From contig JBILDU010000072.1 of assembly GCA_044352465.1 (NCBI GenBank), positions 1 through 15,861 of the forward strand: 15,861 nt of DNA, read 5' to 3'. Within the stretch, counting starts at the first letter, position 1, and each line of letters begins with the position of its first letter. The notes below the pieces were generated by a model. That model had not been told where the DNA came from and did not search any database. It saw nothing but the letters and a program-made list of their open reading frames with translations. Below are positions 1 to 15,562 of this stretch, in pieces. Both the position numbers and the translations under genes were made by a program. This DNA is from Bdellovibrionota bacterium. GTDB taxonomy: Bacteria; Bdellovibrionota_C; UBA2361.

Positions 1-103
1 TTTGCTTCGGCACCCGTACAAAAAAAGCTACTGAAAGAGACGCCCGTCACTTCAGATCGGAGGATTCGAAGATCTCAGAGGTGTCCGTCGGGTAATGTAG
101 ATC

Positions 104-751
104 TTACTTTGCCGCAACGCGAAGGGGGCGTTCCTTCGGTCGTTGTCCGATCTGTATAGGGGTGTTCTCCTCGGCCCGATGGGCGCAGGCGTGACGTACG
201 TCGCATTTTCGGCACTTGCGGGGGTGCGGGGTCGGTTGGGAGGGGCCTCCGGCCAAGATAGCGCGCATCTCATCGAGGTGTTTTTGGAGCCAGGCCTGAC
301 GGGCCGGTGAGTTCTCGATTTTAAATCGGCGACAATTCGGTCCCAAGATGAGGTAGCCGTAGGGTGGCTTTTTGCCCTCGAATTCCTCGACGAGGCGCAT
401 GTAGACCAAGAGTTGAGCGACGTAGCGATCGCGCACCTTTCGGGCGAGCGGCTTTCGTTCGATCGGGATGATGAATCCATCCTCGGAGATGAGTGCGTCG
501 GGTTTACCGGCGAGGCCTTGTATTTCGGAGACGTAGTTTCTGACCGGCAGGGTTTTCGTGCCGTCGACGCTCACCGTGATGGTGGAGGTGGAGACGCCCA
601 CTTCACGCTCTTTGCTTTCGAGTACGGTGCCGACGCGGCCTAGAATGACAAGGGTGATCACACCGAGGAGGACAAGGATTATCAGATCCACGTCGAGCTG
701 AGCCAACTCGCTGGTGGTTCGGCTGATCCAATCGAGGAGAGTCGCCCACAT
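104..751 (-). CDS. cas4: Cas4-family (RecB-like PD-(D/E)xK) nuclease, C-terminal/catalytic part, with N-terminal transmembrane anchor; solo, no CRISPR array in window
   Basis: Motif II GLAGKPD, motif III IERK (E-x-K), QLLVY (QxxxY), GYL, and C-terminal P-x4-KCRKCDVRHAC (CxxC-x5-C, three Fe-S ligands). The usual N-terminal Cys is absent. Hydrophobic helix LIILVLLGVITLVILG near the N-terminus. SD-like GAGGT 8 nt upstream of the ATG at 751. Confidence 0.85.
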   Translation of the reverse strand: MWATLLDWISRTTSELAQLDVDLIILVLLGVITLVILGRVGTVLESKEREVGVSTSTITVSVDGTKTLPVRNYVSEIQGLAGKPDALISEDGFIIPIERKPLARKVRDRYVAQLLVYMRLVEEFEGKKPPYGYLILGPNCRRFKIENSPARQAWLQKHLDEMRAILAGGPSQPTPHPRKCRKCDVRHACAHRAEENTPIQIGQRPKERPLRVAAK

Positions 752-757
752 TTTTTG

Positions 758-1021
758 TTACCTCGACTGTAAGAGGAGGTAGACCACTGCTGCGGTAACG
801 AGGAGGACGACGATAAGGTGGGCCTTCCGTCCGAGATATACGAACTCTTCATATGCTTTGGCCCACTCTTGGTGGAGGAGCCGGCCGTCGGTGCTGGAGG
901 TCTCCCGAGAGGTGCGGACTTGCTCTACGTTGCGGAGACGCCACGATTCGGGGCAGACGGTGTAAGCGCCGACTTCACCGGCTGAAATGATGTATTTTCC
1001 ATATTCGGTCTTTCGAGCCAT
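758..1021 (-). CDS. Small membrane protein resembling the N-terminal segment of Cas4 (first Fe-S cysteine), with C-terminal transmembrane helix
   Basis: IISAGEVGAYTVCPESW matches the Cas4/AddB N-terminal I-S-x-S-x3-Y-x2-C-P-x2-W pattern (Cys23). It is followed by GRLLH (G-x3-H helix) and the TM segment LIVVLLVTAAVVYLLL. The ORF ends 6 nt before the start of 104-751, in the same frame. Confidence 0.75.
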   Translation of the reverse strand: MARKTEYGKYIISAGEVGAYTVCPESWRLRNVEQVRTSRETSSTDGRLLHQEWAKAYEEFVYLGRKAHLIVVLLVTAAVVYLLLQSR

Positions 1022-1124
1022 CGCGCCCCTATGCTCTTTCCGTGTGTCTTATTGGTTGTTATGGCAAGGCGGCGTCTCGAAGAGGCATAGGCCTACACCT
1101 TGCGAGGGGACTGTCTATCCGGTT

Positions 1125-1153
1125 GATTCGGCACAATAAATGGGGGTCTTTGA
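1125..1153 (-). promoter_or_regulatory. Putative sigma28 (FliA)-type promoter upstream of the split cas4 pair
   Basis: Minus strand reads TCAAAG-N15-GCCGAATC, resembling TAAA-N15/16-GCCGATAA; about 100 nt upstream of the ATG at 1021. Confidence 0.4.
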
Positions 1154-1164
1154 CGGGTGGGGGA

Positions 1165-1725
1165 CTATCTCTTCCACCAGCCCCGCAGGGACCGGCGGAG
1201 ATGACCGAGGAATCGCTCTAACGGAGATGCTCGCTGCACCTCGCGCCACCCCGGGATAAACGGCGCCTCTGCCTCGAGGGGTTGCATGTCAGGAGCCGCT
1301 ATGAGGTTCTCGAAAAGGGAATCCGCTATCGGGATGTGGGCTGTCTCGATAATGCACTGGGTCTCGGGGGCTTGGTGGTGGGTGATGCGCCAGAAGGCGC
1401 TTTTGGCGCATGCCGATACGAACTCGCAGCGCATAAGATAGCGTCCTGCCTCCGGATCGGCGACGACGTCGATATTGAAATCGTGACCGAGTTGAAGGAC
1501 GAAGTTAGCCTCGAGAACCTGGCGCCACCCCCGTCGGGCTCGGTAGAGGGCAAGCTCGTCCGAGTAAACCCCCGCGAGCGCGTTTGTTTCAGGGTCGAAT
1601 CGAACCGGCGAGTCGAGCCCGATTCGTTTGGTCAATTCAATCAGTTCTAAACCTGCGTGTTCCACCCCAAGCTCGCCGTTCGGTGTCTGTAACCTATGGA
1701 TTCCTTTGACATAAGGCCTCCTCAT
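1165..1725 (-). CDS. Hypothetical protein (~186 aa) with C-terminal basic amphipathic helix
   Basis: Long ORF with globular-looking composition. ATG at 1725 (MRRPYVKG) preferred over the TTG at 1785. Ends PLERFLGHLRRSLRGWWKR. No family recognised. Confidence 0.65.
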   Translation of the reverse strand: MRRPYVKGIHRLQTPNGELGVEHAGLELIELTKRIGLDSPVRFDPETNALAGVYSDELALYRARRGWRQVLEANFVLQLGHDFNIDVVADPEAGRYLMRCEFVSACAKSAFWRITHHQAPETQCIIETAHIPIADSLFENLIAAPDMQPLEAEAPFIPGWREVQRASPLERFLGHLRRSLRGWWKR

Positions 1726-1862
1726 AGTATATCGACTCAAAAGGCGGGGTCCTTGAGGTGGGGGGCGAGCTAAATAGCGGTGCAACGGGGGAGGTGAAGC
1801 GGTCGGGTAGGGGGCTTATCAAAGCCGTTTTTTTAGAGTTACTCTGGAAAAATAATCTCTAG

Positions 1863-1875
1863 TAAGGTATTGAAA
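1863..1875 (-). promoter_or_regulatory. IHF-like binding site in divergent intergenic region
   Basis: Reverse complement TTTCAATACCTTA matches WATCAANNNNTTR with one mismatch, in an AT-rich context. Confidence 0.35.
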
Positions 1876-1941
1876 TCTTTCTGGACCGTTCAACGGTTTG
1901 AGGGCTTAAAGCAACGCAAATTTTTTTGCGGGGCTCGAAAG

Positions 1942-1971
1942 CGAGATCTAAAATCCGAGATCTAAAATCCG
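1942..1971. repeat. Perfect 14-bp tandem direct repeat (CGAGATCTAAAATC x2 + CG)
   Basis: Read directly: cgagatctaaaatc cgagatctaaaatc cg. Confidence 0.9.
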
Positions 1972-2067
1972 GAAGTTTGTGGTGTCTTAAAGGCACGTTG
2001 TTTTCAGTCAGTTTATTTTCAAAACAGTGCCCCGGATATTCCCGGGGGTTAAAAAAGAGATATCGAT

Positions 2068-2769
2068 ATGGGACGAGGTAAATTCGGTCGTGGTCGTGGT
2101 CGGGACAACTTTCGTCGTGGTGGTAACGGCGGCGGTGGTGGCGGTCGGCGGGGTGGTCGGCGGCATCGGGGTCACCCCCGTCAATCCGCTGATAGCGGCA
2201 ATAAGCGGGAGAGAATAGCTGTTGAGAGCGGGCATCTGGTCTTCATCGATCAGTTCATGCTGGCGAATCCGCAATTCATCGATCGTCTTTTGACCGTCAT
2301 CGACGCCTCTGCTGAGGAGAAGGACAAGCTCATTCAGGATTACGGTGGATGTGTCGTTGATGTGGAGCCTGGTACGTATCGTATCGAGCGTGACCCGTTT
2401 GCGTTTTCGATCGTTGTTCACCCCGAGGGATACCGAGCTGAGGGCGAGTCTCTTCCCGAGCTTGCGACGATGAGTCGTGGGCATGTGTTCGTTGATACCC
2501 GTTGCCTCGCGATGGTGGATCGGGAGCTTCTTGACGACAGCAGCCTTCTTCAAAAGTACCAGGAGCTGTGGTTCGCTGGGGAGGATAAGGCGTGTCGGGA
2601 TCTCCTCCGTGATAACGGTGGAGCGGTGCGTTACGGTTTCCAACGTGAGGGTGATGAGCTGGGGATCTATTCGATTCCGGGCGAGAACGTGATCTGCCTC
2701 TGGCCGGACCTCAAAGAGGAGGTCGCTGGCGATGAGTCGGTAGCGAGCGAAGCTACTCCTGAGGTGTAG
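2068..2769 (+). CDS. Hypothetical protein with RG/RGG-rich N-terminal tail and internally duplicated globular domain
   Basis: 233-aa ORF. The first ~45 aa are Gly/Arg low complexity. Two similar segments follow: IAVESGHLVFID...LIQDYGG and VFVDTRCLAMVD...LLRDNGG. Acidic C-terminal tail. Confidence 0.8.
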   Translation: MGRGKFGRGRGRDNFRRGGNGGGGGGRRGGRRHRGHPRQSADSGNKRERIAVESGHLVFIDQFMLANPQFIDRLLTVIDASAEEKDKLIQDYGGCVVDVEPGTYRIERDPFAFSIVVHPEGYRAEGESLPELATMSRGHVFVDTRCLAMVDRELLDDSSLLQKYQELWFAGEDKACRDLLRDNGGAVRYGFQREGDELGIYSIPGENVICLWPDLKEEVAGDESVASEATPEV

Positions 2770-4606
2770 AGCGAGGCGATTGCGCCTTGATGTGATTAAT
2801 CAGGTTCGCCTCGTTTAATGGGAGGCCACTGAGCTGCTCGATCGACCGTTTGAGCGCGCTCTGTGCCTCCCTACTTTTTTCGGCGAAGTAGCGGGCGGAG
2901 AGGAACCCGAGGGCGCGCCGATCGCCTAGCTCGGCGAGGGCGCGCGCAGTTGCGATCCGCACCTGTTCGTCCGAGTCTTCGAGCATCACGACAAGGTGCG
3001 GCACGATGCGACGGTCCGCGGTATTCCCCAGTAATTTGATGGTGGCGAAGCGAATCCCGGCTGAGGGGTGTTTGAGTGTGGCGACGCTCGCATCGACGAA
3101 CTCGGCGATGCGGCGATCGGCTGCGAGGGTCAGCGCATCGAGGACCCGTTGCTCCGAGGCGGTTGTCCCCATTATCACCCCTAAAAGCTGTCGGTTCGAA
3201 AGTTCACTCACCGCTAGTGAGTCGGGGGCAGCCTCGACGCGTGGAACGATCAGCTCACTTTCAAGCTCTGCGGGAGCGGCGATCTCGAGGACGCTGCTTT
3301 GAAGGTGAGGGGCGCCGCTTTGGTTTCCACTCAAAAGCAGGTAGGTGATGAGAAACGTGAGGGGGGTAATGAGACCCACCACCACGAGCAGGAGCGCCTT
3401 TTCGGGGTGGATCTTCGGCACGCGGCGGAGTCCTTTCCGGGGCTCCTCACTCCGCTGTGGAGCCATCACCGGTAGGGTGCCCCCCTCAAAGATCGTTCCG
3501 GGTTTTAGAGGCCGGGGCCCCGTATTCTGTCGGGGGGAGTAGGCATCTTCCCGTGAGCTACGGGGTGGGGGATCGTTGCGCGGTGACTCAGTCTTGACGG
3601 GGGTCACGGGCTCGCCGGCGAGAGGTGCCTCGGTGGATTGGTGCGCTTTCGCGCCATCACGGCGCCGCAGAGAGATAGGGCTATCATCGGGAGGATTCGA
3701 GGGGTTCCGGGTGTCGCTCATACCGAATGCCTGCGCCAACGAGTTTACAAATTCATCGGCGGTATCGAAACGTTTTTCTCGCGGGATCGAGAATGCGCGG
3801 TCGAATGCGAACTCGAGCTCGACCGGGAGCTCGGGGGCTACTGAGCCGAGCGCGCGCCTCTTTCCTGCCACGATATTACGCATGAGTCCGGTCGCTGTCT
3901 CCCCCAGAAACGGGATCTTACCGGTAAGGCACTCGAAGGCGAGAGCGGCAAAGCTGAAGAGATCGGAACGACCGTCGAGCTCCTCGTTCCGTACCTGTTC
4001 GGGTGACATGTACGCAGGTGTCCCCACGATGATGTCCGGGTCGTGCGCGGGGAGCGGGATCGCCCCGGCGATCCGCTTCGACATGCTCGCTACTCCAAAG
4101 TCGAGGATATAAACCTTGTCCTCTCCTTCGATAAGGACGTTACTGGGCTTGATATCGCGGTGAACTATCCCTTTCGAATGGGCGTAGTCGAGTCCGGCCG
4201 CGATCTGGCGGAAGATCGCGAGTGCGCGCGCCGGTTGAAGTCGTCGCTCACGGGTGAGGATCTGGTCAAGCCCTTCGCCGCGGATGTACTCCATCACGAT
4301 GTAGGGGCGATCGCTCTCTTGGTGGGCCTCGAATATCGCGATGATGTTCGGGTGACGCAGATTGCCCGCCGATCGAGCTTCGAGGCGGAAACGTTTGAAT
4401 GCATCGGCAGCATCTTGGGGGTGGGCGGATTGCATCGAGCGCAAAACCTTGATCGCAACGTCACGACCTATCTCGGGGTCGCGCGCCTTGTACACCACAC
4501 CCATCGCGCCTTGTCCGATCGTTTCCACAAGACGATACTTTCCGATGGTCGGGGAGCCCGTCCTATTCGGGGTATCGTTCGATTCATGTAGAGGGACAAC
4601 GCGCAT
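2753..4606 (-). CDS. Membrane-anchored Hanks-type Ser/Thr protein kinase with C-terminal HEAT (PBS-lyase-like) repeats
   Basis: GQGAMGVVY, VAIK, HPNI, HRDIKPSN, DFG, GTPAYMSPEQ, SDLFS; Pro-rich linker; TM LLLVVVGLITPLTFLITYLLL; HEAT-like LKHPSAGIRFATIKLLG and LEDSDEQVRIATARALAELGD. Confidence 0.95.
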   Translation of the reverse strand: MRVVPLHESNDTPNRTGSPTIGKYRLVETIGQGAMGVVYKARDPEIGRDVAIKVLRSMQSAHPQDAADAFKRFRLEARSAGNLRHPNIIAIFEAHQESDRPYIVMEYIRGEGLDQILTRERRLQPARALAIFRQIAAGLDYAHSKGIVHRDIKPSNVLIEGEDKVYILDFGVASMSKRIAGAIPLPAHDPDIIVGTPAYMSPEQVRNEELDGRSDLFSFAALAFECLTGKIPFLGETATGLMRNIVAGKRRALGSVAPELPVELEFAFDRAFSIPREKRFDTADEFVNSLAQAFGMSDTRNPSNPPDDSPISLRRRDGAKAHQSTEAPLAGEPVTPVKTESPRNDPPPRSSREDAYSPRQNTGPRPLKPGTIFEGGTLPVMAPQRSEEPRKGLRRVPKIHPEKALLLVVVGLITPLTFLITYLLLSGNQSGAPHLQSSVLEIAAPAELESELIVPRVEAAPDSLAVSELSNRQLLGVIMGTTASEQRVLDALTLAADRRIAEFVDASVATLKHPSAGIRFATIKLLGNTADRRIVPHLVVMLEDSDEQVRIATARALAELGDRRALGFLSARYFAEKSREAQSALKRSIEQLSGLPLNEANLINHIKAQSPRSTPQE

Positions 4607-4863
4607 ATATCCCCTTATCGGGGTTTCCGCCTATTTTGATTCACGGGGAGATCGTTGGGGGTGCTACCGAAGGAAGCGTTATCTCGCGAAGTGGTTTCAA
4701 AAATGGGCGTCTGCCCAGCTCTGCGATCGCTTCTTACCGCGAGGCGACAGACGCTACGGGCGCAAGACTCTGGAGCGTCTCAGGAGCTCACGCATCGGTC
4801 CTTAGCTCTGCCCTGCGACGAAAAGAAGTCGGGACTCCAAAGTAGCTGTGGTGAGGGGATGTG

Positions 4864-5835
4864 CTATCGACGATTGGCGTCCCCGACACGGCGCATAATT
4901 CGGCCCTTGTAGACCGCAAACTCACGCCGTTCACCATCGGCTTCACGGAAGCTGACGACGCCCTCGAGCCCTTCGGCTTGATGGCTTTCACCCTCGGTGC
5001 GGGGCAAGAGGCCTTTAAATCCCATCGTCGTCACGTTGGCGGTCGCTTTGCCGGAATCGCTCGCTCCACGGAGCGCTAAGACGATCTGGCCACCGGTCGA
5101 GGCGAGGAGCACCTTTTGGGCATCACGCTCGTTTGTCAGCAAGGTAACGGTGGTCGGGATCGGTGCATTCGGCTCGGCACGGGGATCGAATTGTCGCTCG
5201 GCTGAGAGAACTTTGGCGTTTTGCACGATAAGATTAGCGGTCTTCTCACCCAGCACGTCGGTGATCCAGTGCACGTCGACGTGGGCGCCGGCGCGTGCCC
5301 ATCCTTCAACCGCCGAGGTGGCGTTGGTGCTGATTGTGATAGCGCGGTGCCCCTCGGGGATATTCTCGATCACCTGATTTTGCGGCGGGCGGTTCGTGAC
5401 GACCGATTTGACGATCGGTTGGTGCGCCGGGAGAAGGCTGCGGGCGAACTGGCCGGTGAGGTCGTCGTAGGTAAGGATCGCGTCGGGGGGTAATCCTACC
5501 CGTGCCCGTTTTACGCGCATAAAGAGGGCGGGGTCGAGCGGTTTGCCCGGCTCGATCTCTTTGACCGGAACGAGGACGTCGACCATCTCGATCGGCGCGG
5601 GCTTTTCAACCTTCACCGTTTTGACGGCAGCGACCGGTTGAGATGCATTCGTGTTGGTTGAAGAGACCAGGAGGACGGTGCTCAGCGTCACCGCCATAAA
5701 GAGTCCGATGCCTGAGAGGATTAAAAGCCGGGTGCGTTGGGACTGTCGGCTGGCGTTAAAGCCGCCCGAGCGTTTTGCTGCGAATCCAGCGCCTTCATCG
5801 TAACGATTCCACTCTTTTGAACCATCTAGTCGCAT
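4864..5835 (-). CDS. cpaB: Flp/Tad pilus assembly protein CpaB (RcpC; SAF domain)
   Basis: N-terminal TM; SAF-like VLVPVKEIEPGKPL; RcpC motifs IPEGHRAITI, VEGWARAGAHVDV, IVQNAKVL, TVTLL, GQIVLALR. Confidence 0.9.
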   Translation of the reverse strand: MRLDGSKEWNRYDEGAGFAAKRSGGFNASRQSQRTRLLILSGIGLFMAVTLSTVLLVSSTNTNASQPVAAVKTVKVEKPAPIEMVDVLVPVKEIEPGKPLDPALFMRVKRARVGLPPDAILTYDDLTGQFARSLLPAHQPIVKSVVTNRPPQNQVIENIPEGHRAITISTNATSAVEGWARAGAHVDVHWITDVLGEKTANLIVQNAKVLSAERQFDPRAEPNAPIPTTVTLLTNERDAQKVLLASTGGQIVLALRGASDSGKATANVTTMGFKGLLPRTEGESHQAEGLEGVVSFREADGERREFAVYKGRIMRRVGDANRR

Positions 5836-6065
5836 ACGTTGCGATCTCCCAAAAACCCCGGATTACATCCGTAAAACCAACCGGTGGAGGACTCTTCCGC
5901 GTCGCTCCTTGGCGCGGCCCGATGCTGCGCTCCCTCGCCTGAGGGCATACGGCTGCTCACCCTCCTATCTGGTATGGCGGGCGGGGTGCTTCAGGTGATT
6001 TTTAAAATCTTCAAATGAGGCAGTTCCATAACCACTTGAAGGTATTCGTTAATGTTTGGTCATCG

Positions 6066-6758
6066 CTACGGTGTTGTTGTCTGAATCGAACCGATCGACT
6101 CACGGGTAAGTCCCCCAACCTCGGAGGTTCCGGCCCAGGCGAGGGGGAAAAACGAACGCATCGAGGTCATCTGAATTCTAATACGGGCGGCGTTGGCGTA
6201 CCGATAGTTGTTGTTCATACAGAATTCAGGACAGTCGCCGGTGTCGCTCTCTAGGGGTACAAAATACGGACCGTTTGGCTCGCCATCCACATTTGCACCG
6301 GAGGAGCTGTCTTCGTTGTAAAGCCACGCCCCGCGCTCGATCGTGATGATCAGTCTCCCCACGCGGATCTCGGAGCCGCGATAGGGATTCATCACCCCGT
6401 CCCCGGTTGTTTCAAGCTCGTAAAAGTCCATAATGCCGCGGGGCTCCCATGTTCCCCCTCCGGCGAGCACGTTCGTATCCTCGGCGATAAGATTACTTCG
6501 GAGAGCCAACACCGCAGCGCGGCGCGCCTCTTTCCAATCGCTAGGTGTTCCCGCAGGGGTATACGGATCGCCCTTCAATTGAAGGCTCGCCGCCAGTGCG
6601 GCGGCATCGGCCGCGCGCTGAAGCGAGCGACCGATCCGCTCCATCCGTAAGATATCGACCACTAGTGCCCCCATGGCAAGAAGCACCATAATTCCGAACA
6701 TCCCGGCGATAAGGACTGCACCCCGTTCGTTTTTATCGGCGCGTGGGCTGGCTAACAT
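6066..6758 (-). CDS. TadG-like / Tad N-terminal domain pseudopilin
   Basis: ERG|AVLIAGMFGIMVLLAMGALVVD...LQRAADAAALAA is the Tad_N signature. ATG at 6758 overlaps the upstream TAG (ATGTTAG); the ORF-track extension to 7019 overlaps tadE and is unlikely to be translated. Confidence 0.85.
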   Translation of the reverse strand: MLASPRADKNERGAVLIAGMFGIMVLLAMGALVVDILRMERIGRSLQRAADAAALAASLQLKGDPYTPAGTPSDWKEARRAAVLALRSNLIAEDTNVLAGGGTWEPRGIMDFYELETTGDGVMNPYRGSEIRVGRLIITIERGAWLYNEDSSSGANVDGEPNGPYFVPLESDTGDCPEFCMNNNYRYANAARIRIQMTSMRSFFPLAWAGTSEVGGLTRESIGSIQTTTP

Positions 6759-7243
6759 GTGTGTGTCCCACTGTCGTCGCACCCGGTCGTACCACTTTCG
6801 ATAACGAGGAGGCTCCGCGCCGTCAAAGTTATCTCCCACGGCATGAGGGAGCAAAAGAGGCACCTGGCCTCGGCGGTACCGTCGATCCGAATGAGCGGAT
6901 ACGGGGCATAATTCCCGAGTTCGCCCGAATTCGCCGCGATAATCGTCGGCTCGAAAGTGAAGCCGGTCAGATGGGGTTGATTCGTCGCACCCTCGATGAG
7001 GTTTTGCGCTCGCGTGCATAAATCAACGCATCCCCCCGCGGGTTCGCGCACGACCTCAGAGGCGATTTTACGTACAAGGGTAGCGCTCGTTTCGGTCAGG
7101 AGGGTGTGGCGGTGAAAGAGGAGGCTCCCATCGATGATGAGCGCAACCAACATTAAAATGCCGAGGGTCGCGACCGCGAGCTCCACGAGCGCCGCGCCAC
7201 GCTCCTCTCTCCGTTCATGATGGGTGAAGCGACTCGACATCAT
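6752..7243 (-). CDS. tadE: TadE-like pseudopilin
   Basis: ERG|AALVELAVATLGILMLVALIIDG (G-x4-E prepilin cleavage motif). ATG at 7243 forms an ATGA overlap with the upstream stop codon. Confidence 0.85.
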   Translation of the reverse strand: MMSSRFTHHERREERGAALVELAVATLGILMLVALIIDGSLLFHRHTLLTETSATLVRKIASEVVREPAGGCVDLCTRAQNLIEGATNQPHLTGFTFEPTIIAANSGELGNYAPYPLIRIDGTAEARCLFCSLMPWEITLTARSLLVIESGTTGCDDSGTHTC

Positions 7244-7803
7244 GATGCGCACTGTACCGGAAAGAAACTGGTCTCATCGAGGATAAGGCTTTCGAACTGA
7301 TCTTGGAGGCAAAACAAACATTTTTGCGCGGCGTGAGCGCGCTGCACCTTTACTTCGAGCCAGCGCATCTGGACCTGATTTGGCCCCGGGTCCTCGATTC
7401 GGGTGACCGGACCTTTAAACTCGACCCGCCAGTCGGTTGGTTCAAAGCCCGCTTCCCGGAGGTAGTGACACGCCATATACATCCCGCTTCTGAGGGGAAT
7501 AGCGTCGTTTGGAAAATCGCCCCCGAGAACTGTCGCGCAGCCTCCGCTGCCAACCAGCTCTGCCGCTGTTGCCCCGCACCAGGCGGCGGTTGCGGTTGGT
7601 GAAAGCTTCGCTGTCATCGAGCCAGCGGTGCGGGCTCCAGCGCGGGAGGCTTGGTAGATAACTGTTGATTGCTGAAAGACGTATCCGAGGTCGATGATGC
7701 CGGCGATAATAAAGAGGACGAGCGGAAAGATAACCGCGGTTTCGACGAGGACCGACCCCTGAGTTTGGTGCCGCGCGTGTGCGCGGGACGAGCCCACAAC
7801 CAT
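7240..7803 (-). CDS. tadE: TadE-like pseudopilin
   Basis: QG|SVLVETAVIFPLVLFIIAGIIDLG...ASRAGARTA, a classic TadE N-terminus. Confidence 0.9.
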   Translation of the reverse strand: MVVGSSRAHARHQTQGSVLVETAVIFPLVLFIIAGIIDLGYVFQQSTVIYQASRAGARTAGSMTAKLSPTATAAWCGATAAELVGSGGCATVLGGDFPNDAIPLRSGMYMACHYLREAGFEPTDWRVEFKGPVTRIEDPGPNQVQMRWLEVKVQRAHAAQKCLFCLQDQFESLILDETSFFPVQCAS

Positions 7804-7971
7804 CGTAAGAACCCCACATCAACCGGAGGTGCCTGAAGCGCTATGCGATCCATCCCCCGATGGGCGCGGTAGCGGCTGAGACGTGACCAAACGTATGGGT
7901 CAAACGACCCTCGCCGGTGAGGCACACCCCCTCTTCGCCATAGTTATGGCCCAACTCCGCGTTAACGCTAC

Positions 7972-8000
7972 TTATCGGCACAACAACCGCTCGAGCTTAA
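7972..8000 (-). promoter_or_regulatory. Putative sigma28 (FliA)-type promoter for the tadE-tadE-tadG cluster
   Basis: Minus strand reads TTAAG-N16-GCCGATAA, with a perfect sigma28 -10 element, about 170 nt upstream of the tadE ATG. Confidence 0.6.
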
Positions 8001-8063
8001 GGGGGTGGCACCACTAAGTGCGCGGATACTCACCATTTCGAGGCAATGATCGCCTATTGGTAC

Positions 8064-8972
8064 TTACGCCACCGGCACATCACTCACCGCGCCTACGGCG
8101 GCGCGTGGGATGGCGTTGTTTATGCGTTTCAAGAGCCCTGAGAGCACCGCGCCGGCTCCGAATTCGACCGCTTTCTCGATCGCCTCGCCGGTGATTGCAT
8201 TCTCCATACATTCAATCCACCGTACTCGCCCACAGACCTGGGCTTTAAGCGCTCCGCGGATCTCCTCGGGGGAGCGGACCGGTTGGGCGGTGAAATTAGC
8301 GTACACCGGGAAAGCGGCGGGCTTAATTTCGGTGTGATCGAGGTCGACGGCGAGCTTGTCAGCCGCAGGTTGCATGAGGGCGCAATGGAACGGTGCGCTC
8401 ACCGCGAGGTCGGTCATCCGCGCATCTCCCAGCGCTAATTTAAAAGCATCGACCGCTGCCGCAGCGCCGGCGACGACGATTTGACCGGGGGAGTTGATGT
8501 TGGCGATCTGCACCACGCCGGAGGTGACGGAAGCGATAGCGGCTTCGATCTCAGCGGTCTCTTTGCCGAGCACCGCGACCATCTTACCCTCGCCCACCGG
8601 GACCGCTGTCTGCATGTATTTGCCCCGCTTGTGGACGAGTACGACCGCATCCTCGAAGCGGAGCGCCCCGGCAGCGACGAGGGCGGAGTATTCGCCGAGG
8701 CTGTGGCCTGCTGCGGCGGTGAGGGTGAGGCCCGCCTCGGCGGCGAGTCGGTAGCAGATGGTGCTAACCGTCAAGATGGCGGGTTGGGCGTGCTCGGTCG
8801 CCGTCAACGCTTCGGCGGGACCTTCGAAACAGAGGGTCGAAAGTTTAAACCCAAGCGCCTCGTCGGCGGCGCTGAAGATGCTTCGAGCTATCGGGGACTG
8901 CTCAAAGAGCTCCTTTCCCATACCGACTTTTTGTGAACCTTGACCGGGGAAAAGACCGAGAATTTTCGCCAT
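8064..8972 (-). CDS. fabD: Malonyl-CoA:ACP transacylase
   Basis: FPGQGSQ, TEHAQPAIL, catalytic GHSLGEY, R of HKRG, ANINSPGQIVVAG, VSAPFHC, VRW, VEFGAG. Confidence 0.97.
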   Translation of the reverse strand: MAKILGLFPGQGSQKVGMGKELFEQSPIARSIFSAADEALGFKLSTLCFEGPAEALTATEHAQPAILTVSTICYRLAAEAGLTLTAAAGHSLGEYSALVAAGALRFEDAVVLVHKRGKYMQTAVPVGEGKMVAVLGKETAEIEAAIASVTSGVVQIANINSPGQIVVAGAAAAVDAFKLALGDARMTDLAVSAPFHCALMQPAADKLAVDLDHTEIKPAAFPVYANFTAQPVRSPEEIRGALKAQVCGRVRWIECMENAITGEAIEKAVEFGAGAVLSGLLKRINNAIPRAAVGAVSDVPVA

Positions 8973-9012
8973 ATAACGCCGTGTTTCCTCAATGGTTTTG
9001 GAGGGGGAAGAT

Positions 9013-9182
9013 AATGGCTCTGCCGAAGAAAGGGAAGAGCCATTCTAACCACTATAGTTAGGGAGGTTCGCTTCGCTCGCCGCGAGCTACGGACAGAAGC
9101 GTCCTGTCGGGAGTTCGGAACCCCTCAAACTCCGATTCTCGAGGTTGCCCCAGCGCTTTGCGCTGACCGCGCCACCTCTAAG
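9013..9182. other. Cluster of inverted repeats in the fabD/kinase divergent intergenic region (possible REP/MITE-like element or structured RNA)
   Basis: Stems: AATGGCTCT/AGAGCCATT (9013-9044), CTAAC/GTTAG (9045-9061), GCTCG/CGAGC (9075-9087), GACAG/CTGTC (9092-9108), GGAGTT/AACTCC (9110-9133), and CAGCGC/GCGCTG (9151-9165) nested in GAGGT/ACCTC (9141-9178). Confidence 0.45.
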
Positions 9183-9333
9183 CCGATGCGTCAGATAAAC
9201 CGATGATCTCCATCGATTTTCTTTCGCTTTAGGAGCGCTGCGAACGGGTCGATATCCCTTGAGGAGCCGGTTATAGCGACGGCTCTATCGTGGTGTGCCC
9301 ACCCACGAGTCGCACGGAGTTGTTGTTGTGAGT

Positions 9334-10467
9334 ATGCAGTTATCCACTACTGAGCGGGCCTCAGTTCTCGTTGTCGATGATAACCCCCTTGTTCTTGGGG
9401 TGATGCGCACCTTATTGGCGGCGCACGATTACGCTGTTCTGACCTCTGAAAACGGTAAGCAAGCGCTGGCGACCCTCGCCGAGCACTCCGTCGATCTCAT
9501 TATCTGTGATGTCATGATGCCCGAGATGGGGGGGTATGACCTCCACAAAGCGGTGCGCGAGAACCGCAAGCTCTCCCATGTGCCGTTTGTTTTTTTAACC
9601 GCCCTCGCCGATCCCGGTGAGATCGAGCAGGGGCTCCGTTCAGGCGCGGACGACTATCTCGTCAAGCCGTTTGACCCCCAAAAGATGCTCTCGATTGTTG
9701 AAGGGAAAATCGCACGCTCGCGCATGTTACGACGCGCGTCGGCCGATCAATTCGATGATTATCGAAAGCGGGTAGTGCACACGTTGTCGCACGAGTTTCG
9801 TACCCCACTGGTGGCGATTAATACCGGAACCGAGCTCCTGATCGATAATCACAGCGCCATGCCGGTTGAAAAGGTGCAACATCTCCTGGAGGCGATCCAG
9901 CGGGGGGGGCAACGACTCGAGCGGCTCGTGAGCGACTTTATGTTGCTTCAACAGGTCGAGGCCGGGGTGAGTCAGCGGTTGTTTGAATCGCGGAGTACGG
10001 TGCTTGTGGTCGGGGAGGTAGTTGCCCGGGTTGTTGAGGGGCTCGGCGAGCAGATTGCCTCGCTCGGTTATGAGTTGTCGTATCGTGATGAGACGGCGCG
10101 TGCCCGGTGCAAGATCTACGAGCCGCAGTTTCATGAGATTTTAGCTCGTCTCGTCGATAATGCGGTGAAATTCTCACCGGAGCATCGGCGAATCGATGTC
10201 GTGGGGCGCCTCGTTGACTCAGCGGTATGGGTTGACGTGTGTGATCGGGGCATCGGTATCGATCCCCAGGCGCTCGACGAAGCCGGTAATCCCTTCGGCC
10301 AGATGAACCGTGATAAGCTTGAGCAGCAAGGGGGGGGCTTTGGGCTCGCCATCGCGAAACGCTTCGCGGGGGTAAATCGTGGCCGGATCGAGATCGGTCC
10401 ACGCGAGGGGGGCGGAACGGTAGTCTCAGTTATCATCCCGGTTTACGACCCGTTACACGAGCGCTGA
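9334..10467 (+). CDS. Cytoplasmic hybrid signalling protein: receiver domain + histidine kinase (REC-HisKA-HATPase_c)
   Basis: REC: VLVVDD, DVMMP (phospho-Asp), FLTA, KPF. H-box SHEFRTPL, N-box LVDNAVKF, G1 DRGIGI, F NPFGQ, G2 GGFGLAI. Start uncertain (ATG 9334 or GTG 9295). Confidence 0.93.
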   Translation: MQLSTTERASVLVVDDNPLVLGVMRTLLAAHDYAVLTSENGKQALATLAEHSVDLIICDVMMPEMGGYDLHKAVRENRKLSHVPFVFLTALADPGEIEQGLRSGADDYLVKPFDPQKMLSIVEGKIARSRMLRRASADQFDDYRKRVVHTLSHEFRTPLVAINTGTELLIDNHSAMPVEKVQHLLEAIQRGGQRLERLVSDFMLLQQVEAGVSQRLFESRSTVLVVGEVVARVVEGLGEQIASLGYELSYRDETARARCKIYEPQFHEILARLVDNAVKFSPEHRRIDVVGRLVDSAVWVDVCDRGIGIDPQALDEAGNPFGQMNRDKLEQQGGGFGLAIAKRFAGVNRGRIEIGPREGGGTVVSVIIPVYDPLHER

Positions 10468-10684
10468 AGAGGGCGCTCTGGGCGGTTCTCCGATTGTCCT
10501 TACCGGATAGCCCGGATATCATCCACAGTGATTGATGACATGGGTTTCCCAAAGCCCTGGTATCGTCCGTGGGGAGGATGGCGCGCATCGACGGTGTAGC
10601 CCCTTTTCCTCCCCGGGGACGTTGTGTCGGTGTGGTACGATCGCGCCTGCAGCGCGATAACAGCCCCGTTCGTAAGGATTGCTG

Positions 10685-12235
10685 ATGCATCGCTCGAGCT
10701 CGCGAATTATTTTTTTTCTGCTCTCGTTTTGTTTCGCCGTGGGTGGCTTTTCCGCGGTAGTGCGGGCGGACGTGAGTGAAACTCGGGCGACGCTTTCGCG
10801 ACTCGCTGATAACGTGCACACCGCCACGTTGTCGAACGGATTGCGGGTGGTTTTGTACCGGCGGGGCGTGGCACCGGTATTCGCCGGCGCCGTAGGAGTA
10901 CGGGTAGGTGGAAGCGATGAGAAGCCGGGACATACCGGGATCGCCCATATGCTTGAGCATATGGCCTTTAAGGGCACCTCAGAGATCGGAACCCGCGATT
11001 TTAGCCGTGAGAAAAAGCTGCTGGCTGAGCTTGAGGAGCTGGTGCGGTTCCAGCTTCCGGATGGGTCTCTCCCCGCGAAGGAAAAAAAGCGGTGGGATGA
11101 GATTCATGCTGACTTAGAGAAGTTGTGGGTGGCGGAAGAGTTCACTCGCCGTTACGAGGAGCGGGGCGCGGTGGGGATGAACGCCACGACCGACTCGGAG
11201 CTCACCCGTTATTTTACCGAGATGCCGCGCGCCGCGTTCGAGTTCTGGTGTCGGATGGAGTCGGCCCGGATTCTCGACCCGGTGATGCGCCAGTTCTACC
11301 GTGAGCGGGACGTCGTCATGGAGGAGCGGCGGATGCGGAGTGAGGACTCGCCCGAAGGGAAGCTCTACGAGCATCTTCTCGGAATGACCTTTTTGCACCA
11401 TCCATATCAGAATCCGGTGATCGGTTTCGCCCGCGATATCGCCGGTCTGACCGCGACGCAGGTGCGGGATTTTCATCGGCGTTACTACGTTCCAGCGAAC
11501 ATCGCGGTGAGCCTGGTGGGGGATGTTGACCCGGCCCGCGATATCCCGATCCTTGAGCGTTACTTTGGAAGAATACCCCGCGGTCCGCTCCCTGAACGGC
11601 CCCAGGCAGTCGAGCCTCCCCAAGAGGGAGCGCGCGAGTTCGTGCTTGAAAACAAAGCCTCGCCGCAGATGTTTATCGCCTATCGGAAGATGCAGTACCC
11701 GCATCCGGATGACGCACCGGTTTCGATACTCCTGGAGATGCTTGCGGGAAGCTCGATCTCTCCGCTCTATAAGGAGCTGGTGAAGAAACGTCAAATCGCT
11801 GCCGCAATAGGCTACGATGAGGCTCCCGGGAATGCCTATCCGAACTTAGCGATCTTTTCTCTAACGACGAAGGCCCCCCATACGAACGCCCAATTATTAG
11901 TGGCTTTCGATGAGGTGCTTGAGCAGTTCCGCGCTCATCCGGTCGACCCGAGTGCACTCGAGATCGCCAAACGGGCGGTCGCAGTGGAGTATCTCGAGCA
12001 TCTCCGCTCGAACCTGTCGCTCGCCATCGATTTCGCCTCATCGACACTGCTCTACGATAATTGGCGCGCAATGATCGATTGGTACGACCAAGCGATGCGG
12101 GTAACTCCCGCGGATATAGAGCGGGTGGCCGCGACCTATCTGGTGCCGCGCAATCGTGTCGTGGCGCGGCTCGAGCGGCAGGACGATGGCGTTGGGCCGG
12201 GTGGGGCTCGCTTGGAAAAGGGAAGGGGGCGATGA
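10685..12235 (+). CDS. M16B zinc peptidase, catalytic (HxxEH) subunit, with signal peptide
   Basis: LSNGLRV, VGGSDEKPGHTGIAHMLEHMAFKG (inverted Zn motif), NATT, ERDVVMEERRMR, HPYQNPVIG, YYVPAN. Hydrophobic N-terminus ending AVVRA. Start ATG 10685 (TTG 10679 alternative). Confidence 0.95.
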   Translation: MHRSSSRIIFFLLSFCFAVGGFSAVVRADVSETRATLSRLADNVHTATLSNGLRVVLYRRGVAPVFAGAVGVRVGGSDEKPGHTGIAHMLEHMAFKGTSEIGTRDFSREKKLLAELEELVRFQLPDGSLPAKEKKRWDEIHADLEKLWVAEEFTRRYEERGAVGMNATTDSELTRYFTEMPRAAFEFWCRMESARILDPVMRQFYRERDVVMEERRMRSEDSPEGKLYEHLLGMTFLHHPYQNPVIGFARDIAGLTATQVRDFHRRYYVPANIAVSLVGDVDPARDIPILERYFGRIPRGPLPERPQAVEPPQEGAREFVLENKASPQMFIAYRKMQYPHPDDAPVSILLEMLAGSSISPLYKELVKKRQIAAAIGYDEAPGNAYPNLAIFSLTTKAPHTNAQLLVAFDEVLEQFRAHPVDPSALEIAKRAVAVEYLEHLRSNLSLAIDFASSTLLYDNWRAMIDWYDQAMRVTPADIERVAATYLVPRNRVVARLERQDDGVGPGGARLEKGRGR

Positions 12236-13725
12236 AGAGAATTGATTTCACCTTATCTCGCATTTTGACCAGCGCCATTTTGGTGGCGCTGGTGGGGCTT
12301 ACTACCGGCGGGTGTCGTGGTCCCCTTGGTCGAATACCACAGGTGCCGGCGGTGGATGTTGCCCCGGCCTACACCCCACCCAAGCCGGAGGAGTGGGTGA
12401 TGGGGAACGGCCTGCGGGTCATGTTTATCCGGGATGGGGAGCTTCCGCTCGTAAGGGTCAATCTGCTCATGCGAGGCGGAACCTTATGGGAGCCCCTTGA
12501 ACGTTGGGGGGCGGTGAGCGCTGTGGGTGCGCAGTTACGGCTCGGCGGTGCGGGGGAGCGGAGCGCCGACGAGCTCGATCGACTTCTGGAGGAGCTTTCG
12601 GCGGGGATCAGTACCTCAGCGGGCGGGGAGTCGATCAACGCGTCGTTGCGATGTCTCTCGTCCGATCTCGATGCTGTGCTTGGTCTTTTCGCTGATGTGA
12701 TTCAACGGCCTCGTTTCGAGGAGGGGCGGCTGAATTTATGGAAGGGGCAAAATCTCGAAGCGATTCGGCGACGGGTCGACGACCCCTCAACAGTTGCGGG
12801 TCTCGCCCTCGGCGAGCTGCTCTACGGGTGGAGCCCCTACGGGCGTTTCCCGCTGGAGGAGGATATCAGTGCGCTTTCGCGGGCCGATCTGACTGCGGTC
12901 CATGGGCAGTTTGTGGTGCCGAGCGGTGCGATCTTAACGATAACCGGGGATGTCTCCCGCGCGGAGGTTGAGCGGTTACTTGAGAAACATCTGGGTGGCT
13001 GGCGCGCGGCGGGTGCCGTGGCGCGTGTTTTACCACCGGTCGAGACGGCACCCGTCCCCGGGATCTATTTTATTCGCCTCCCCTTTTCGCAGGCGACCGT
13101 TTATCTGGGGCAACTCGGTGTTCCACGGCTTACGGATGATTACATTGAGATAGAGGGATTTAACGAGCTTTTTGGGGCGTCGGGTTTTAGTTCGCTCTTG
13201 ATGCAGCGGATCCGTTCCGAGCTCGGTCTCGCTTATTCGGTCTACGGGGGGATCCTCCCTGGGCCGGTGAAGGGTAAAAACGTCATCGCGCTGCAGACAA
13301 AAGCTGAGTCGAGTGGTACGGCGGTCGTAGAGTCGCTCCGTGTTCTTAAAGCGATGCAATCGACTCCGGTCGAGACTGAGAAACTCGCCGAGGCGCAACG
13401 CTCGATTACGAACTCGTTTATATTTAGGTTCGACACTATCGACGAGGCGCTCAATCGGCGTGCGCTGCAAACGTACCTGGATTACCCCACCGATTACGAT
13501 GCGACCTACCTTCCCCGTATCGCTGCGCTCAGCCCCGAGGCGATTCGGCGCACTGGGGAGCGGCGTTGGGATCTCTCTCAATTTGTTATCGTTGTCGTTG
13601 GAGACGATAAGGCGTACGCTGCTCTTAGAGAGACCTTAGCGAACGGGGCTCCAGAGCTTGCGGGCTACTCGCTGCGTGAGGTGACGTTCGATAAGCGGCT
13701 GGGAGAGAGAGGGGAGCGGTCATGA
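12232..13725 (+). CDS. M16B peptidase partner subunit (no HxxEH; carries R/Y pair), probable lipoprotein
   Basis: ATGA overlap with the upstream stop at 12232-12235. Signal peptide ending LTTGGC; MGNGLRV; zinc motif replaced (AVGAQLR); SSLLMQRIRSELGLAYSV. Confidence 0.92.
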   Translation: MKRIDFTLSRILTSAILVALVGLTTGGCRGPLGRIPQVPAVDVAPAYTPPKPEEWVMGNGLRVMFIRDGELPLVRVNLLMRGGTLWEPLERWGAVSAVGAQLRLGGAGERSADELDRLLEELSAGISTSAGGESINASLRCLSSDLDAVLGLFADVIQRPRFEEGRLNLWKGQNLEAIRRRVDDPSTVAGLALGELLYGWSPYGRFPLEEDISALSRADLTAVHGQFVVPSGAILTITGDVSRAEVERLLEKHLGGWRAAGAVARVLPPVETAPVPGIYFIRLPFSQATVYLGQLGVPRLTDDYIEIEGFNELFGASGFSSLLMQRIRSELGLAYSVYGGILPGPVKGKNVIALQTKAESSGTAVVESLRVLKAMQSTPVETEKLAEAQRSITNSFIFRFDTIDEALNRRALQTYLDYPTDYDATYLPRIAALSPEAIRRTGERRWDLSQFVIVVVGDDKAYAALRETLANGAPELAGYSLREVTFDKRLGERGERS

Positions 13726-14432
13726 GAGGATTCGGAAGTTTGTGTCGACGCGCTACGGTGGCCCTTGGCGCGAGCGCTCTGGTGGCGTGCGCCCCAGCCA
13801 CTCCTGGCCCCGACAAGCAATTTGCTGGGGCGCTCGAGGGCGCCGCTCTCGGGGCGGGTAGCGGAGCGATTACCGGTTTCCACGTCGCCGCGGCATCTGG
13901 ACCAGGGGCTGCCATCGGGGCGGGCTTCGGTGCGGTCGTTGGTGGTATTCAAGGATTAGTCGCCGATCAGGAGGAGGAGGCGATGTTGGCCCTCGCCGCG
14001 GAGCGACGGGGTGAGCGCTCCCGTGCGCAAGTTCATGAGACGCTCAGCGAGCACTATCAGCGTCGTCTTGAGCTTCATCCCACGCGAGATATCTATCCCG
14101 CCGATCTTTTCTTTGATGGGGACGAGGTCGATTTAAAGCCAGGAGCAGTAGCCTTAATCGATGAGATGGCTCGACTCAATAAGCGGCGGTTACCGTGGTC
14201 CCGTTTGGTAGTGGCGGCGTATGCGAAATCCTCGTCTCCAGACTCGGAGTTTGCCCGCCATTTAACCGAACGGCGTTCGCGGGCGATCGGCGACCAGCTT
14301 ATCCGGGGGGGGATCGAGCCGCGCCGGATAGTTACCAGGGCTGTGGTTATCGACGAGCCGGTTTTAATCGACCCGCACGATAAAGTTTCGCGATACAATC
14401 AAGCAATTGAAATCATTCCGGCCGATCGGTAA
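13722..14432 (+). CDS. Lipoprotein with glycine zipper and degenerate OmpA-like C-terminal domain
   Basis: Lipobox LVAC; GAALGAGSGA...GAAIGAGFGAVVGG zipper; OmpA_C-like LFFDGDEVDLKP...LTERRSRAIGDQLIRGGIEPRRI...NQAIEI. ATGA overlap with the upstream gene. Confidence 0.8.
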   Translation: MRGFGSLCRRATVALGASALVACAPATPGPDKQFAGALEGAALGAGSGAITGFHVAAASGPGAAIGAGFGAVVGGIQGLVADQEEEAMLALAAERRGERSRAQVHETLSEHYQRRLELHPTRDIYPADLFFDGDEVDLKPGAVALIDEMARLNKRRLPWSRLVVAAYAKSSSPDSEFARHLTERRSRAIGDQLIRGGIEPRRIVTRAVVIDEPVLIDPHDKVSRYNQAIEIIPADR

Positions 14433-14492
14433 TCTTAATAAAAATGCCCCGGCGAGCACCGCTCCCCGCACGGCAAAGGTATGGGAGGGTGT

Positions 14493-14825
14493 ATGAAGGC
14501 GAAGAAAGAGTCTAAGGGAAAAAACGGGAAACCTATGGGTGGTGACGGCGAGCGGTTTGGTGAGATCTCAAACAAGGCTGAGCTTAAAACTTTTCTCCTC
14601 AATGTTCGGGATAAGATGGCTGAAGGATCGGCTGCGGCGATTTACAGCCTTAGCGCGATGAATTTTGCTCTCAATCTCCCCGATATTCACGGCATGCTCG
14701 ATAATGAAAACAAAGAGTTGGCCCGTGACATCTGGCTTCGATTGAAGCAGGCTGGGGTTCAATTGAGGAATCCTCCGATGCTCTTCACTGCTGAAGAGGA
14801 AGATCTGACGGCGGCGAGCGCTTAG
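14493..14825 (+). CDS. Hypothetical protein (~110 aa, predicted helical)
   Basis: ATG at 14493 preceded by a GGAGG SD; protein-like composition; followed by a terminator. Confidence 0.7.
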   Translation: MKAKKESKGKNGKPMGGDGERFGEISNKAELKTFLLNVRDKMAEGSAAAIYSLSAMNFALNLPDIHGMLDNENKELARDIWLRLKQAGVQLRNPPMLFTAEEEDLTAASA

Positions 14826-14852
14826 GGCCTCACCGTCTTGGGTCGATAGAGG

Positions 14853-14896
14853 GGGCCGGCGCTGTTAGCCAGCGTTGGCCCTCTTTCTTTTTCTTT
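14853..14896 (+). terminator. Rho-independent terminator
   Basis: GGGCCGGCGCTG-TTAGC-CAGCGTTGGCCC, a 12-bp stem with two G-U pairs, followed by TCTTTCTTTTTCTTT. Confidence 0.75.
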
Positions 14897-15025
14897 GTGG
14901 GCTAAACGTATCGGAGGAACTGGTATCGTGGCAGCAGACGCCCCGCATGCACTCCGTCCGAGTGCACGCCGCCCTCATGCTCCGTCATTTTTTACTTCGT
15001 GAGTGTGGAACTCTACCGGCGGCTA

Positions 15026-15358: not shown

Positions 15359-15549
15359 ATACGCCCTGTTCGAATTCCTCTTTTAACAGTGGACTCAAAG
15401 CCTTAGTTAGCTTACCGGTCGAGTATTACTCTAAAGGTCTAATCATGACAAGTGTTTAGACGAAGCTAACTGAAATCACTACTTATTAGACGCAGTCTCG
15501 TCTGGTGGGGATTTAAATCAATCAGAAAAAAATTACCTTGTGATGGGCT

Positions 15550-15562
15550 TAACTTATTGAAA
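15550..15562 (-). promoter_or_regulatory. IHF-like binding site upstream of ihfA
   Basis: Reverse complement TTTCAATAAGTTA matches WATCAANNNNTTR with one mismatch, within an AT-rich region. Confidence 0.4.

Follow-up and report, generated by a model that had tools for sequence, protein, structure and literature searches.

A putative membrane-anchored Cas4-family nuclease encoded by two adjacent genes in a Bdellovibrionota bacterium

Cas4 enzymes act on single-stranded DNA ends and, to our knowledge, are considered soluble, as are their relatives. The CRISPR Cas4 proteins (PF01930/TIGR00372; structures 8D3L, 7MI4/7MI5, 4IC1 and 4R5Q) combine one fold with an N-terminal cysteine, a CX2CX5C triad and the D/E-x-K/QxxxY motifs. 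A PD-(D/E)XK core with flanking cysteines is likewise present in the iron-staple domains of AddB, AdnAB, Dna2 and EXO5, which are soluble domains of large helicase-nucleases or eukaryotic enzymes. Cas4-family nucleases located away from cas genes have been described as solo Cas4 or Cas4-like proteins of pfam12705 (Hudaiberdiev et al. 2017, PMC5704561). The present work concerns two adjacent genes located on the minus strand of a 15,861-nucleotide stretch of DNA, hereafter called the window, which originates from a Bdellovibrionota bacterium (GTDB lineage Bacteria; Bdellovibrionota_C; UBA2361; assembly GCA_044352465.1, contig JBILDU010000072.1, positions 1 to 15,861). On the basis of sequence comparison and structural modelling, we estimate a probability of about 0.8 that these two open reading frames (ORFs) encode one Cas4-family PD-(D/E)XK nuclease with a predicted iron-sulfur (Fe-S) site, distributed over two single-pass membrane chains.

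The pair shares with CRISPR Cas4 the fold, the cysteine pattern and the catalytic motifs. It differs by a two-helix hairpin placed between the N-terminal helices and the core and by its division into two genes; in addition, its genome yields no Cas1, its TIGR00372 score falls under the cut-off and it is a near-universal single-copy gene of its phylum. The PD-(D/E)XK core with flanking cysteines is also common to the pair and to AddB, AdnAB, Dna2 and EXO5 (Z 9-13), but the window domain stands alone, is predicted to be tethered to the membrane and has its cysteine ligands on two chains. Like the solo Cas4 proteins, it is a Cas4-family nuclease away from cas genes. The main text of the Cas4 phylogenomics paper (PMC5704561) has no mention of transmembrane, split or Bdellovibrio forms, and the membrane-inserted, two-gene form differs in this respect from the proteins treated there. 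A full-text literature search returned no description of a membrane-inserted or split Cas4, as judged from the openings of the abstracts. The pair is thus clearly of the Cas4 family by fold and motifs and not CRISPR-associated, and no description was found of its membrane insertion, its two genes or its shared Fe-S ligands.

The small subunit gene (758..1021, minus strand; 87 aa and a TAA stop codon) covers the N-terminal helix region of Cas4 and then a first predicted transmembrane helix (TM1; 767..823, minus strand, residues 67-85), beyond which 2-3 residues are left. Its product holds ISAGEVGAYTVCP, which includes Cys23 (...YTVCPESW...; codon at nucleotides 953-955), then His50 within GRLLHQEW (codon at nucleotides 872-874), and ends in a hydrophobic C-terminus. 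The large subunit gene (104..751, minus strand; 215 aa and a stop codon) specifies an acidic N-terminal tail, a hydrophobic segment predicted to form a second helix (TM2; 635..697, minus strand, residues ~19-39), a linker, the PD-(D/E)XK core (182..568, minus strand, residues 62-190) and the C-terminal cysteine triad (nucleotides 185-214). The D, E-x-K and QxxxY elements expected of a PD-(D/E)XK enzyme are all found in this large ORF, as GKPD (D85), IERK (E98, K100) and QLLVY (Q113, Y117). The four-cysteine pattern of the Cas4 family is present as well, with C23 on the small chain and C180, C183 and C189 on the large one (CRKCDVRHAC, CX2CX5C). Both ORFs and their motifs had been reported at these coordinates in a preliminary description drawn from the bare sequence, and were borne out by an ORF check. 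At the junction (752..764, minus strand), the sequence from stop to start reads TAA-CAAAAA-ATG: the TAA (758-760) is separated from the ATG of the large gene (749-751) by a 6-nt spacer, and a GAGG (761-764) stands 9 nt ahead of that ATG. The two ORFs of the window share one frame, with a single TAA and two codons between them. The Shine-Dalgarno-like GAGG and the 6-nt gap suggest that both chains would be made from one transcript by coupled translation. A promoter and terminator scan of window positions 1-2100 gave counts no higher than those of shuffled sequences and nothing useful between the two genes.

Profile searches were performed with each ORF and with the joined sequence. The Pfam family PDDEXK_1 matched the small ORF over residues 12-58 (profile positions 2-50 of 247, E 0.0025) and the large ORF over residues 63-189 (positions 120-246 of 247, E 1.1e-8, 35.8 bits for a cut-off of 22). 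When the TAA was read through in a six-frame search, positions 2-246 of 247 were covered in a single match (52.4 bits, E 8e-14). The PADLOC Cas4 model PDLC01611 was divided in a like manner between the small ORF (5-48 of 158, E 0.043) and the large ORF (53-157 of 158). The large ORF also matched Pfam Cas_Cas4 (48-159 of 160; 30.2 bits, above the cut-off of 22.7), TIGR00372 (58-179 of 180) and the PADLOC DruK models (E 2e-7). The coverage by the two ORFs is complementary and breaks at the hydrophobic helices, and natural fused orthologues exist, all of which upholds the initial proposal that the ORFs are complementary halves of a single Cas4.

The residues on which the assignment depends are strongly conserved. 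C23 is invariant in 27/27 aligned small subunits, as are D85, C180, C183 and C189 in 27/27 large subunits; K100 and Q113 are conserved in at least 90% of the latter, and position 98 is either E or D. The four cysteines are equally invariant in 20/20 aligned natural fused proteins. The profile built from these 20 proteins aligns with Cas4 8d3l in two parts: profile positions 182-280 correspond to residues 104-202, with the E-x-K, the Q and the cysteine triad aligned, and positions 5-52 correspond to residues 3-48, with the N-terminal cysteine aligned, the latter part being weak when taken alone (8.3 bits). His50 of the small chain aligns weakly with a conserved histidine of Cas4, which is described as a metal ligand in 4IC1 (PMC13621843). 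If His50 plays the same role, the active site would also be composite.

AlphaFold2 (AF2) modelling of L056, a naturally fused member of the window's own family, gave a mean predicted local distance difference test score (pLDDT) of 86.3 and a predicted template modelling score of 0.82; the model displays long helices at residues 41-89 and 98-129. Foldseek placed Cas4 8d3l_J first (E 7e-7), followed by Dna2, Cas4/Cas1, MGME1, AdnAB, SSO0001 and ACE1. In the VIA comparison, the model reached Z 17.4 with 7mi5_A (Cas4/Cas1; root-mean-square deviation (rmsd) 3.4 over 185 aligned residues, model 7-276 against chain 6-206), Z 16.4 with 8d3l_J (rmsd 3.9, 190 aligned) and Z 12.3 with 4ic1_D. The complex of the window's two chains was modelled using a 27-row alignment for each, with a 4Fe-4S cluster included and three controls. 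The interface score ipSAE was 0.80, 0.80 and 0.79, against 0.00 for the best control. At least 93% of the contacts were common to the runs, and the pLDDT of the partner was at least 76. In the calibration, 116 of 157 solved complexes attained the mark, as did 2 of 215 mismatched pairs, counts that hold here only roughly because our own alignments and a ligand were used. The predicted interface brings small-chain residues 9-30, Cys23 among them, together with large-chain residues 179, 183-189 and 191; the two membrane helices are predicted to touch between small-chain residues 66-74 (66-67, 70 and 74) and large-chain residues 33-48. Since the two chains are halves of a fold with solved structures, this pass shows Cas4 likeness rather than binding of these particular copies. 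Adjacency, natural fused orthologues and a predicted interface, the features looked for in a two-gene heterodimer, are all present, binding itself being a prediction of the model. Membership of the pair in the Cas4 family is thereby supported by profile, motifs and modelled fold, and Fe-S binding and cleavage are predicted.

Hydropathy and charge distribution point to a hairpin membrane protein. The Kyte-Doolittle maxima over 19 residues are 2.37 for the small chain (67-85) and 2.81 for the large chain (19-37). Among 22 split pairs, the 15 residues that follow TM2 total 90 K/R versus 30 D/E, and the N-terminal tail ahead of TM2 totals 31 K/R versus 68 D/E. The predicted exterior is short, with 0-7 residues past TM1 and about 20 acidic residues ahead of TM2. 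The two hydrophobic helices and this positive-inside bias fit a hairpin topology in which the small chain would have its N-terminus inside and the catalytic domain would be cytoplasmic. The location of both soluble parts in the cytoplasm, each half being anchored, had been proposed from the charges of the window's chains; the bias is now seen throughout the family.

The gene organization was compared in 60 loci, consisting of 55 non-redundant relatives, the window (L006, L007) and three duplicates (L008, L011 and L034, of L001, L002 and L003, respectively). The small part is located directly upstream of the large part or is fused to it in 60/60 loci and in 55/55 non-redundant relatives; homologues of the large protein devoid of the small neighbour, which would have spoken against the pair as first described, were not encountered among them. 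Once L005 (frameshifted), L006, L008, L011 and L034 (duplicates) and L038 (uncertain start) were dropped, 54 rows were scored, of which 28 are split and 26 fused, with 11 fused rows coming from the single family f9. In L005 (3007-3658), the large-subunit gene of one metagenome-assembled genome (MAG) is frameshifted near GxPD, by assembly error or as a pseudogene. The fused form is a single ORF of ~276-313 aa with two hydrophobic helices in mid-protein and is found in 12 of 15 loci of other orders, in addition to one member of the window's own family. Split junctions vary, with 1- and 4-nt overlaps (ATGA/TGATG types), gaps of 0-17 nt and differing relative frames; a genome of the same genus is split too, with a 5-nt gap and in another frame. 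The breakpoint lies directly past TM1 in the window's order, and beyond the loop in two genomes of other orders, whose small chains are 110 and 116 aa long. Against the same-genus homologues, dN/dS (nonsynonymous over synonymous substitution rates) is 0.07 for the small ORF and dN is 0.16 for the large ORF, with dS saturated. Contigs from three other lake-water runs, one of them a 95-99% variant, match window positions 751-760 exactly, with no indel. A quick, unrooted IQ-TREE phylogeny of the catalytic part shows 7 changes between the split and fused states on the best tree, at least 2 of which are forced by well-supported branches. The ancestral protein most likely consisted of one chain carrying the inserted hairpin, and we infer that gene fission occurred at least twice in the hairpin region. 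An enzyme switched on by dimerisation, one of the options initially considered, is not favoured: translational coupling or fusion of the genes suggests that the halves assemble together constitutively.

The large ORF retrieved 488 homologues at E<=1e-3 from a 90%-clustered database. The best 120 of these are 189-231 aa long; those that bear a name are called Cas4 or hypothetical, and their named sources are Oligoflexia, Bdellovibrionales and 'Pseudomonadota' MAGs. In a sample of 96 genomes of the phylum that are at least 85% complete, the phylum being a single class here, the gene is present in 87 (67 of the 73 high-quality ones), mostly as a single copy, and in 38 of the 41 genomes of the window's order. 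Family f27 (G048-G052, 91-96% complete) is the only family of the sample without it, with 0/5 genomes positive by protein query and by profile, ComEC being found in all five; the gene is therefore dispensable. In the window's own genome (94.9% complete), the locus is the single Cas4-family match. Another match to PDDEXK_1, the sole other one in this genome, lies within a 933-aa open frame (G000, contig C100, 10465-11217, plus strand) that could be of AddB or helicase-nuclease type. Cas1 (PF01867) gave 0 matches in the same genome and no cas gene was detected among 13 window ORFs scanned against Pfam, arrays elsewhere in the genome not being searched for. The gene thus lacks the combination of a TIGR00372 equivalog score with cas1/cas2 or array linkage that defines CRISPR-associated Cas4 proper, and the absence of a CRISPR link noted at the outset for the window extends to Cas1 genome-wide. 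Nor does it form part of a known PADLOC defence system, as the Cas4 and DruK nuclease models alone match the large ORF, and neither the upstream neighbour nor a downstream-neighbour homologue (from L001) has a PADLOC match. No close relatives were found in viral contigs: 5 weak partial matches were obtained at 29-33% identity, none of this family. Genomes of one family group together in the protein tree. This is a vertically inherited, single-copy, CRISPR-independent gene of the phylum.

More distant relatives extend to archaea. The fused-family profile retrieved 1772 clusters (50% identity) at E<=0.001, 539 at 1e-10 and 72 at 1e-30, which include fused, large-only and small-only forms as well as proteins of 320-345 aa and 500-600 aa. 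The latter two classes possess the N-terminal Cys helix, 4 or 8 hydrophobic segments in a hydropathy scan and a Cas4 core with CX2CX5C; where named, their sources are Thermoplasmata archaea. They resemble the bacterial proteins by the Cys helix, the even number of helices and the Cas4 core (P0196, P0200, P0247 and others) and match the fused-family profile at E 1e-20 to 1e-31. They differ from the window pair as single chains with 4 or 8 predicted helices, archaeal by source name. The inserted helices number 2, 4 or 8, always even, and the soluble parts would therefore fit on the same side of the membrane. In P0191, P0200 and P0213 (550-596 aa), eight predicted helices separate the N-terminal Cys helix from the catalytic core, and the source name of one eight-helix protein reads 'CRISPR-associated protein Cas4 [Thermoplasmata archaeon]'. 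Of 539 confirmed metagenome loci of the archaeal type, the best 80 were kept (L068-L147). In 58 of these 80 loci, a gene for a ~690-aa protein lies directly upstream of the four-helix cousin, on the same strand and overlapping or abutting it (for example L083, 4095-6978, and L139, 879-3939). This secreted-looking partner has a hydrophobic N-terminus, a lamin-tail domain (LTD) and a pair of PLD domains; in NCBIfam it scores best, always under the cut-off, with DrmC and NucT, which are PLDs of the nuclease type. The LTD-PLD gene that usually precedes the archaeal forms was not seen in the bacterial loci, where ORFs of at least 90 aa were clustered over ~1.5-3 kb. Archaeal neighbours were scanned against Pfam for 48 of 140 selected ORFs, namely the nearest genes of 13 of 14 selected loci (L115 being left out), and neither Cas1 nor Cas2 was found among these 48.

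The other genes of the window are of housekeeping type and include a Ser/Thr kinase with HEAT repeats, Tad-pilus genes, FabD, a hybrid histidine kinase, M16 peptidases and an OmpA-like protein. The kinase (2753-4606, minus strand) is 617 aa long with C-terminal HEAT repeats, and the Tad/Flp pilus gene set (RcpC/CpaB, TadG-like, TadE) occupies 4864-7803 on the minus strand. Among the 56 non-redundant loci, no frequent neighbour spans the whole class. The most conserved one lies upstream on the same strand (1165..1725, minus strand; ~186 aa from the ATG at 1725, the longest ORF extending to 1785) and is typically ~170 aa long; it was found on the same strand in 31 of the 56 loci, all of the window's order, and in 0/15 loci of other orders. 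Its core motif is ...YRARxxW...FLLE...CxFxTACGRYAFWRLTNxQAPEAQYxIETAHIP. No Pfam, PADLOC or usable Atlas match was obtained for this protein, and its AF2 model (pLDDT 79.8) retrieved nothing from Foldseek at E<=0.001. A likeness to I-DmoI was considered and rejected, the best VIA Z of 6.2 being within the chance range. A 233-aa divergent protein with a Gly/Arg-rich N-terminus and no Pfam match (2068-2769, plus strand) occupies the same position in 16 of 56 loci; a 211-aa minus-strand ORF (2008-2643) overlaps its gene and is probably a shadow. A ~265-aa Cys-rich protein without Pfam or PADLOC match is encoded convergently downstream in 11 of 56 loci (L001, 3664-4470, minus strand), the corresponding position in the window being past the contig end.

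Adjacency to ComEC was chosen beforehand as a test of a link with DNA uptake. In the window's own genome (G000), ComEC is on contig C113. ComEC lies within 2 kb of the gene in 4 of 87 carrier genomes, which belong to families f8 and f16 (L057, 2246-5202; L058, 2263-5149; L149, 2837-5768; L148, 3184-6474). In three f8 genomes, a ~120-aa membrane ORF, the fused Cas4-like gene, ComEC and PyrG follow one another on one strand; in the f16 genome, ComEC is divergent with one gene in between. Two of the f8 ComEC ORFs (515 and 461 aa) were compared with Pfam and have the Competence domain only. As a distance of 5 kb in a 3 Mb genome corresponds to ~0.002 per lineage by chance, this adjacency in two lineages is suggestive, not proof.

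The following mechanism is proposed. The N-terminal helices bearing Cys23 would come from the small chain, as probably would His50 of the metal site, and D85, E98-x-K100, Q113/Y117 and Cys180/183/189 from the large chain. TM1 and TM2 would pack as a hairpin, and the soluble parts would rebuild the Cas4 fold at the cytoplasmic face of the inner membrane. As that fold would be rebuilt from both chains, the Fe-S site and probably the active site would be shared between them, the cluster stapling the fold by binding Cys23 on the small chain and Cys180/183/189 on the large one. The substrates of such an enzyme would be DNA ends located at the membrane's inner face. As a tentative role, which we rate well short of even odds, it may trim or degrade DNA ends there, most plausibly those of DNA imported via a ComEC-type channel. 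The beta-lactamase-like domain of ComEC is a nuclease, NucT functions in the uptake or salvage of DNA, and there are secreted nucleases that contain lamin-tail domains. A broader and doubtful extension is that membrane Cas4-like nucleases form the cytoplasmic-face part of an unrecognised route of DNA import or scavenging, shared by this bacterial phylum and Thermoplasmata. DNA would be cut outside the cell, in archaea by the co-encoded secreted LTD-PLD nuclease-like protein; it would then pass the membrane, in bacteria via a ComEC without its own nuclease domain, and the tethered Fe-S nuclease would trim or digest the emerging DNA.

A number of observations weigh against these interpretations. 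The small ORF taken alone is weakly Cas4-like: its PDDEXK_1 score of 18.2 bits is below the cut-off of 22, its PADLOC Cas4 match is weak (E 0.043) and it has no NCBIfam match. A profile of 27 small subunits retrieved no chain from the PDB sequences even at E<=10, and a profile of 27 large subunits retrieved no Cas4 chain at E<=0.01, its sole match being a spurious designed repeat protein. The TIGR00372 score of the large ORF is 52.8 bits, under the cut-off of 65. Some relatives from other orders are degenerate at E-x-K/QxxxY (e.g. D-I-H, I-I-R, N-L-L) with their cysteines invariant, so that catalysis is not universal in the family. The complex score may partly reflect resemblance to solved Cas4 structures. 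Regarding the role, ComEC adjacency is limited to 4 genomes; ComEC occurs in 92 of 96 genomes, including all 5 without the nuclease, so that there is no link in presence or absence between the two; and the archaeal context for uptake comes from distant relatives. Because its own profile matches are sub-threshold, the Cas4 likeness of the small chain rests on the fused orthologues and on the models. Of the findings that would have overturned the preliminary description, none that computation can address was obtained.

The sub-threshold matches could also be taken to mean that the 215-aa protein acts alone and has no connection with the 87-aa ORF, which would encode some other small membrane protein. 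This is highly improbable, given that the small ORF corresponds to the N-terminal part of natural fusions, is present at every locus examined and provides the cysteine without which the large chain has three of the four. It is barely credible that the pair is a broken gene, an assembly error or a single Cas4-like gene expressed by stop read-through, as the shared frame with a single TAA and two codons between the ORFs might suggest: 28 of 54 rows are split with differing frames and junctions, the same-genus split is in another frame, both halves are under purifying selection and the junction is unchanged in three other samples. The invariance of the four cysteines in 20/20 fused proteins, together with the replacement of E-x-K/QxxxY in several members from other orders, would suit a protein that is mainly a membrane Fe-S protein, either a redox or iron sensor or a DNA-binding scaffold, in which nuclease chemistry is secondary or lost. 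We consider this distinctly unlikely for the window: throughout its order, D85, K100 and Q113 show either complete invariance or conservation of at least 90%, with E or D at position 98, and this conservation of catalytic residues argues for an active enzyme here.

Two other functions have been considered for an active two-chain nuclease. In a defence role, it would destroy phage or plasmid DNA during injection through the inner membrane, where a tether would place it at the entry site; Cas4 and other PD-(D/E)XK members are common in defence systems, and the large ORF has the PADLOC DruK match at E 2e-7. A patchy, mobile distribution is usual for defence genes. The present gene is unlike them, being found in single copy in 87/96 genomes and grouping by family in the tree; its neighbourhood in the window is of housekeeping type with no defence gene seen, the neighbours have no PADLOC match and no close relatives were found in viral contigs, and the defence role therefore appears unlikely. 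An equally low probability is given to a lineage-specific housekeeping nuclease acting on the cell's own DNA (repair, replication ends or segregation), whose membrane location would restrict its access to the nucleoid. Its core-gene-like distribution and the fold it shares with the repair nucleases Dna2, AdnAB, AddB, MGME1 and EXO5 (Z 9-13) would agree with such a function, but no repair gene is a conserved neighbour, the separate 933-aa PDDEXK_1 protein could perform end resection, and the 5 genomes of f27 (91-96% complete) do without the gene.

If the proposed two-chain Cas4-family nuclease is correct, the Cas4 fold withstands both the insertion of a membrane hairpin, or of 4 or 8 predicted helices, after its first helices and a split at that place. 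An iron-staple nuclease would then be able to assemble across two membrane-anchored chains and, with its Fe-S ligands and probably one active-site ligand on two polypeptides, would offer a natural test case for the iron staple. Surveys of CRISPR components would miscount such genes, because the large half is currently annotated as 'Cas4' or 'hypothetical', with the small half usually left unnamed. For the organisms themselves, the near-universal presence of the gene in a poorly studied and largely uncultured phylum would mark a conserved handling of DNA at the membrane in this lineage.

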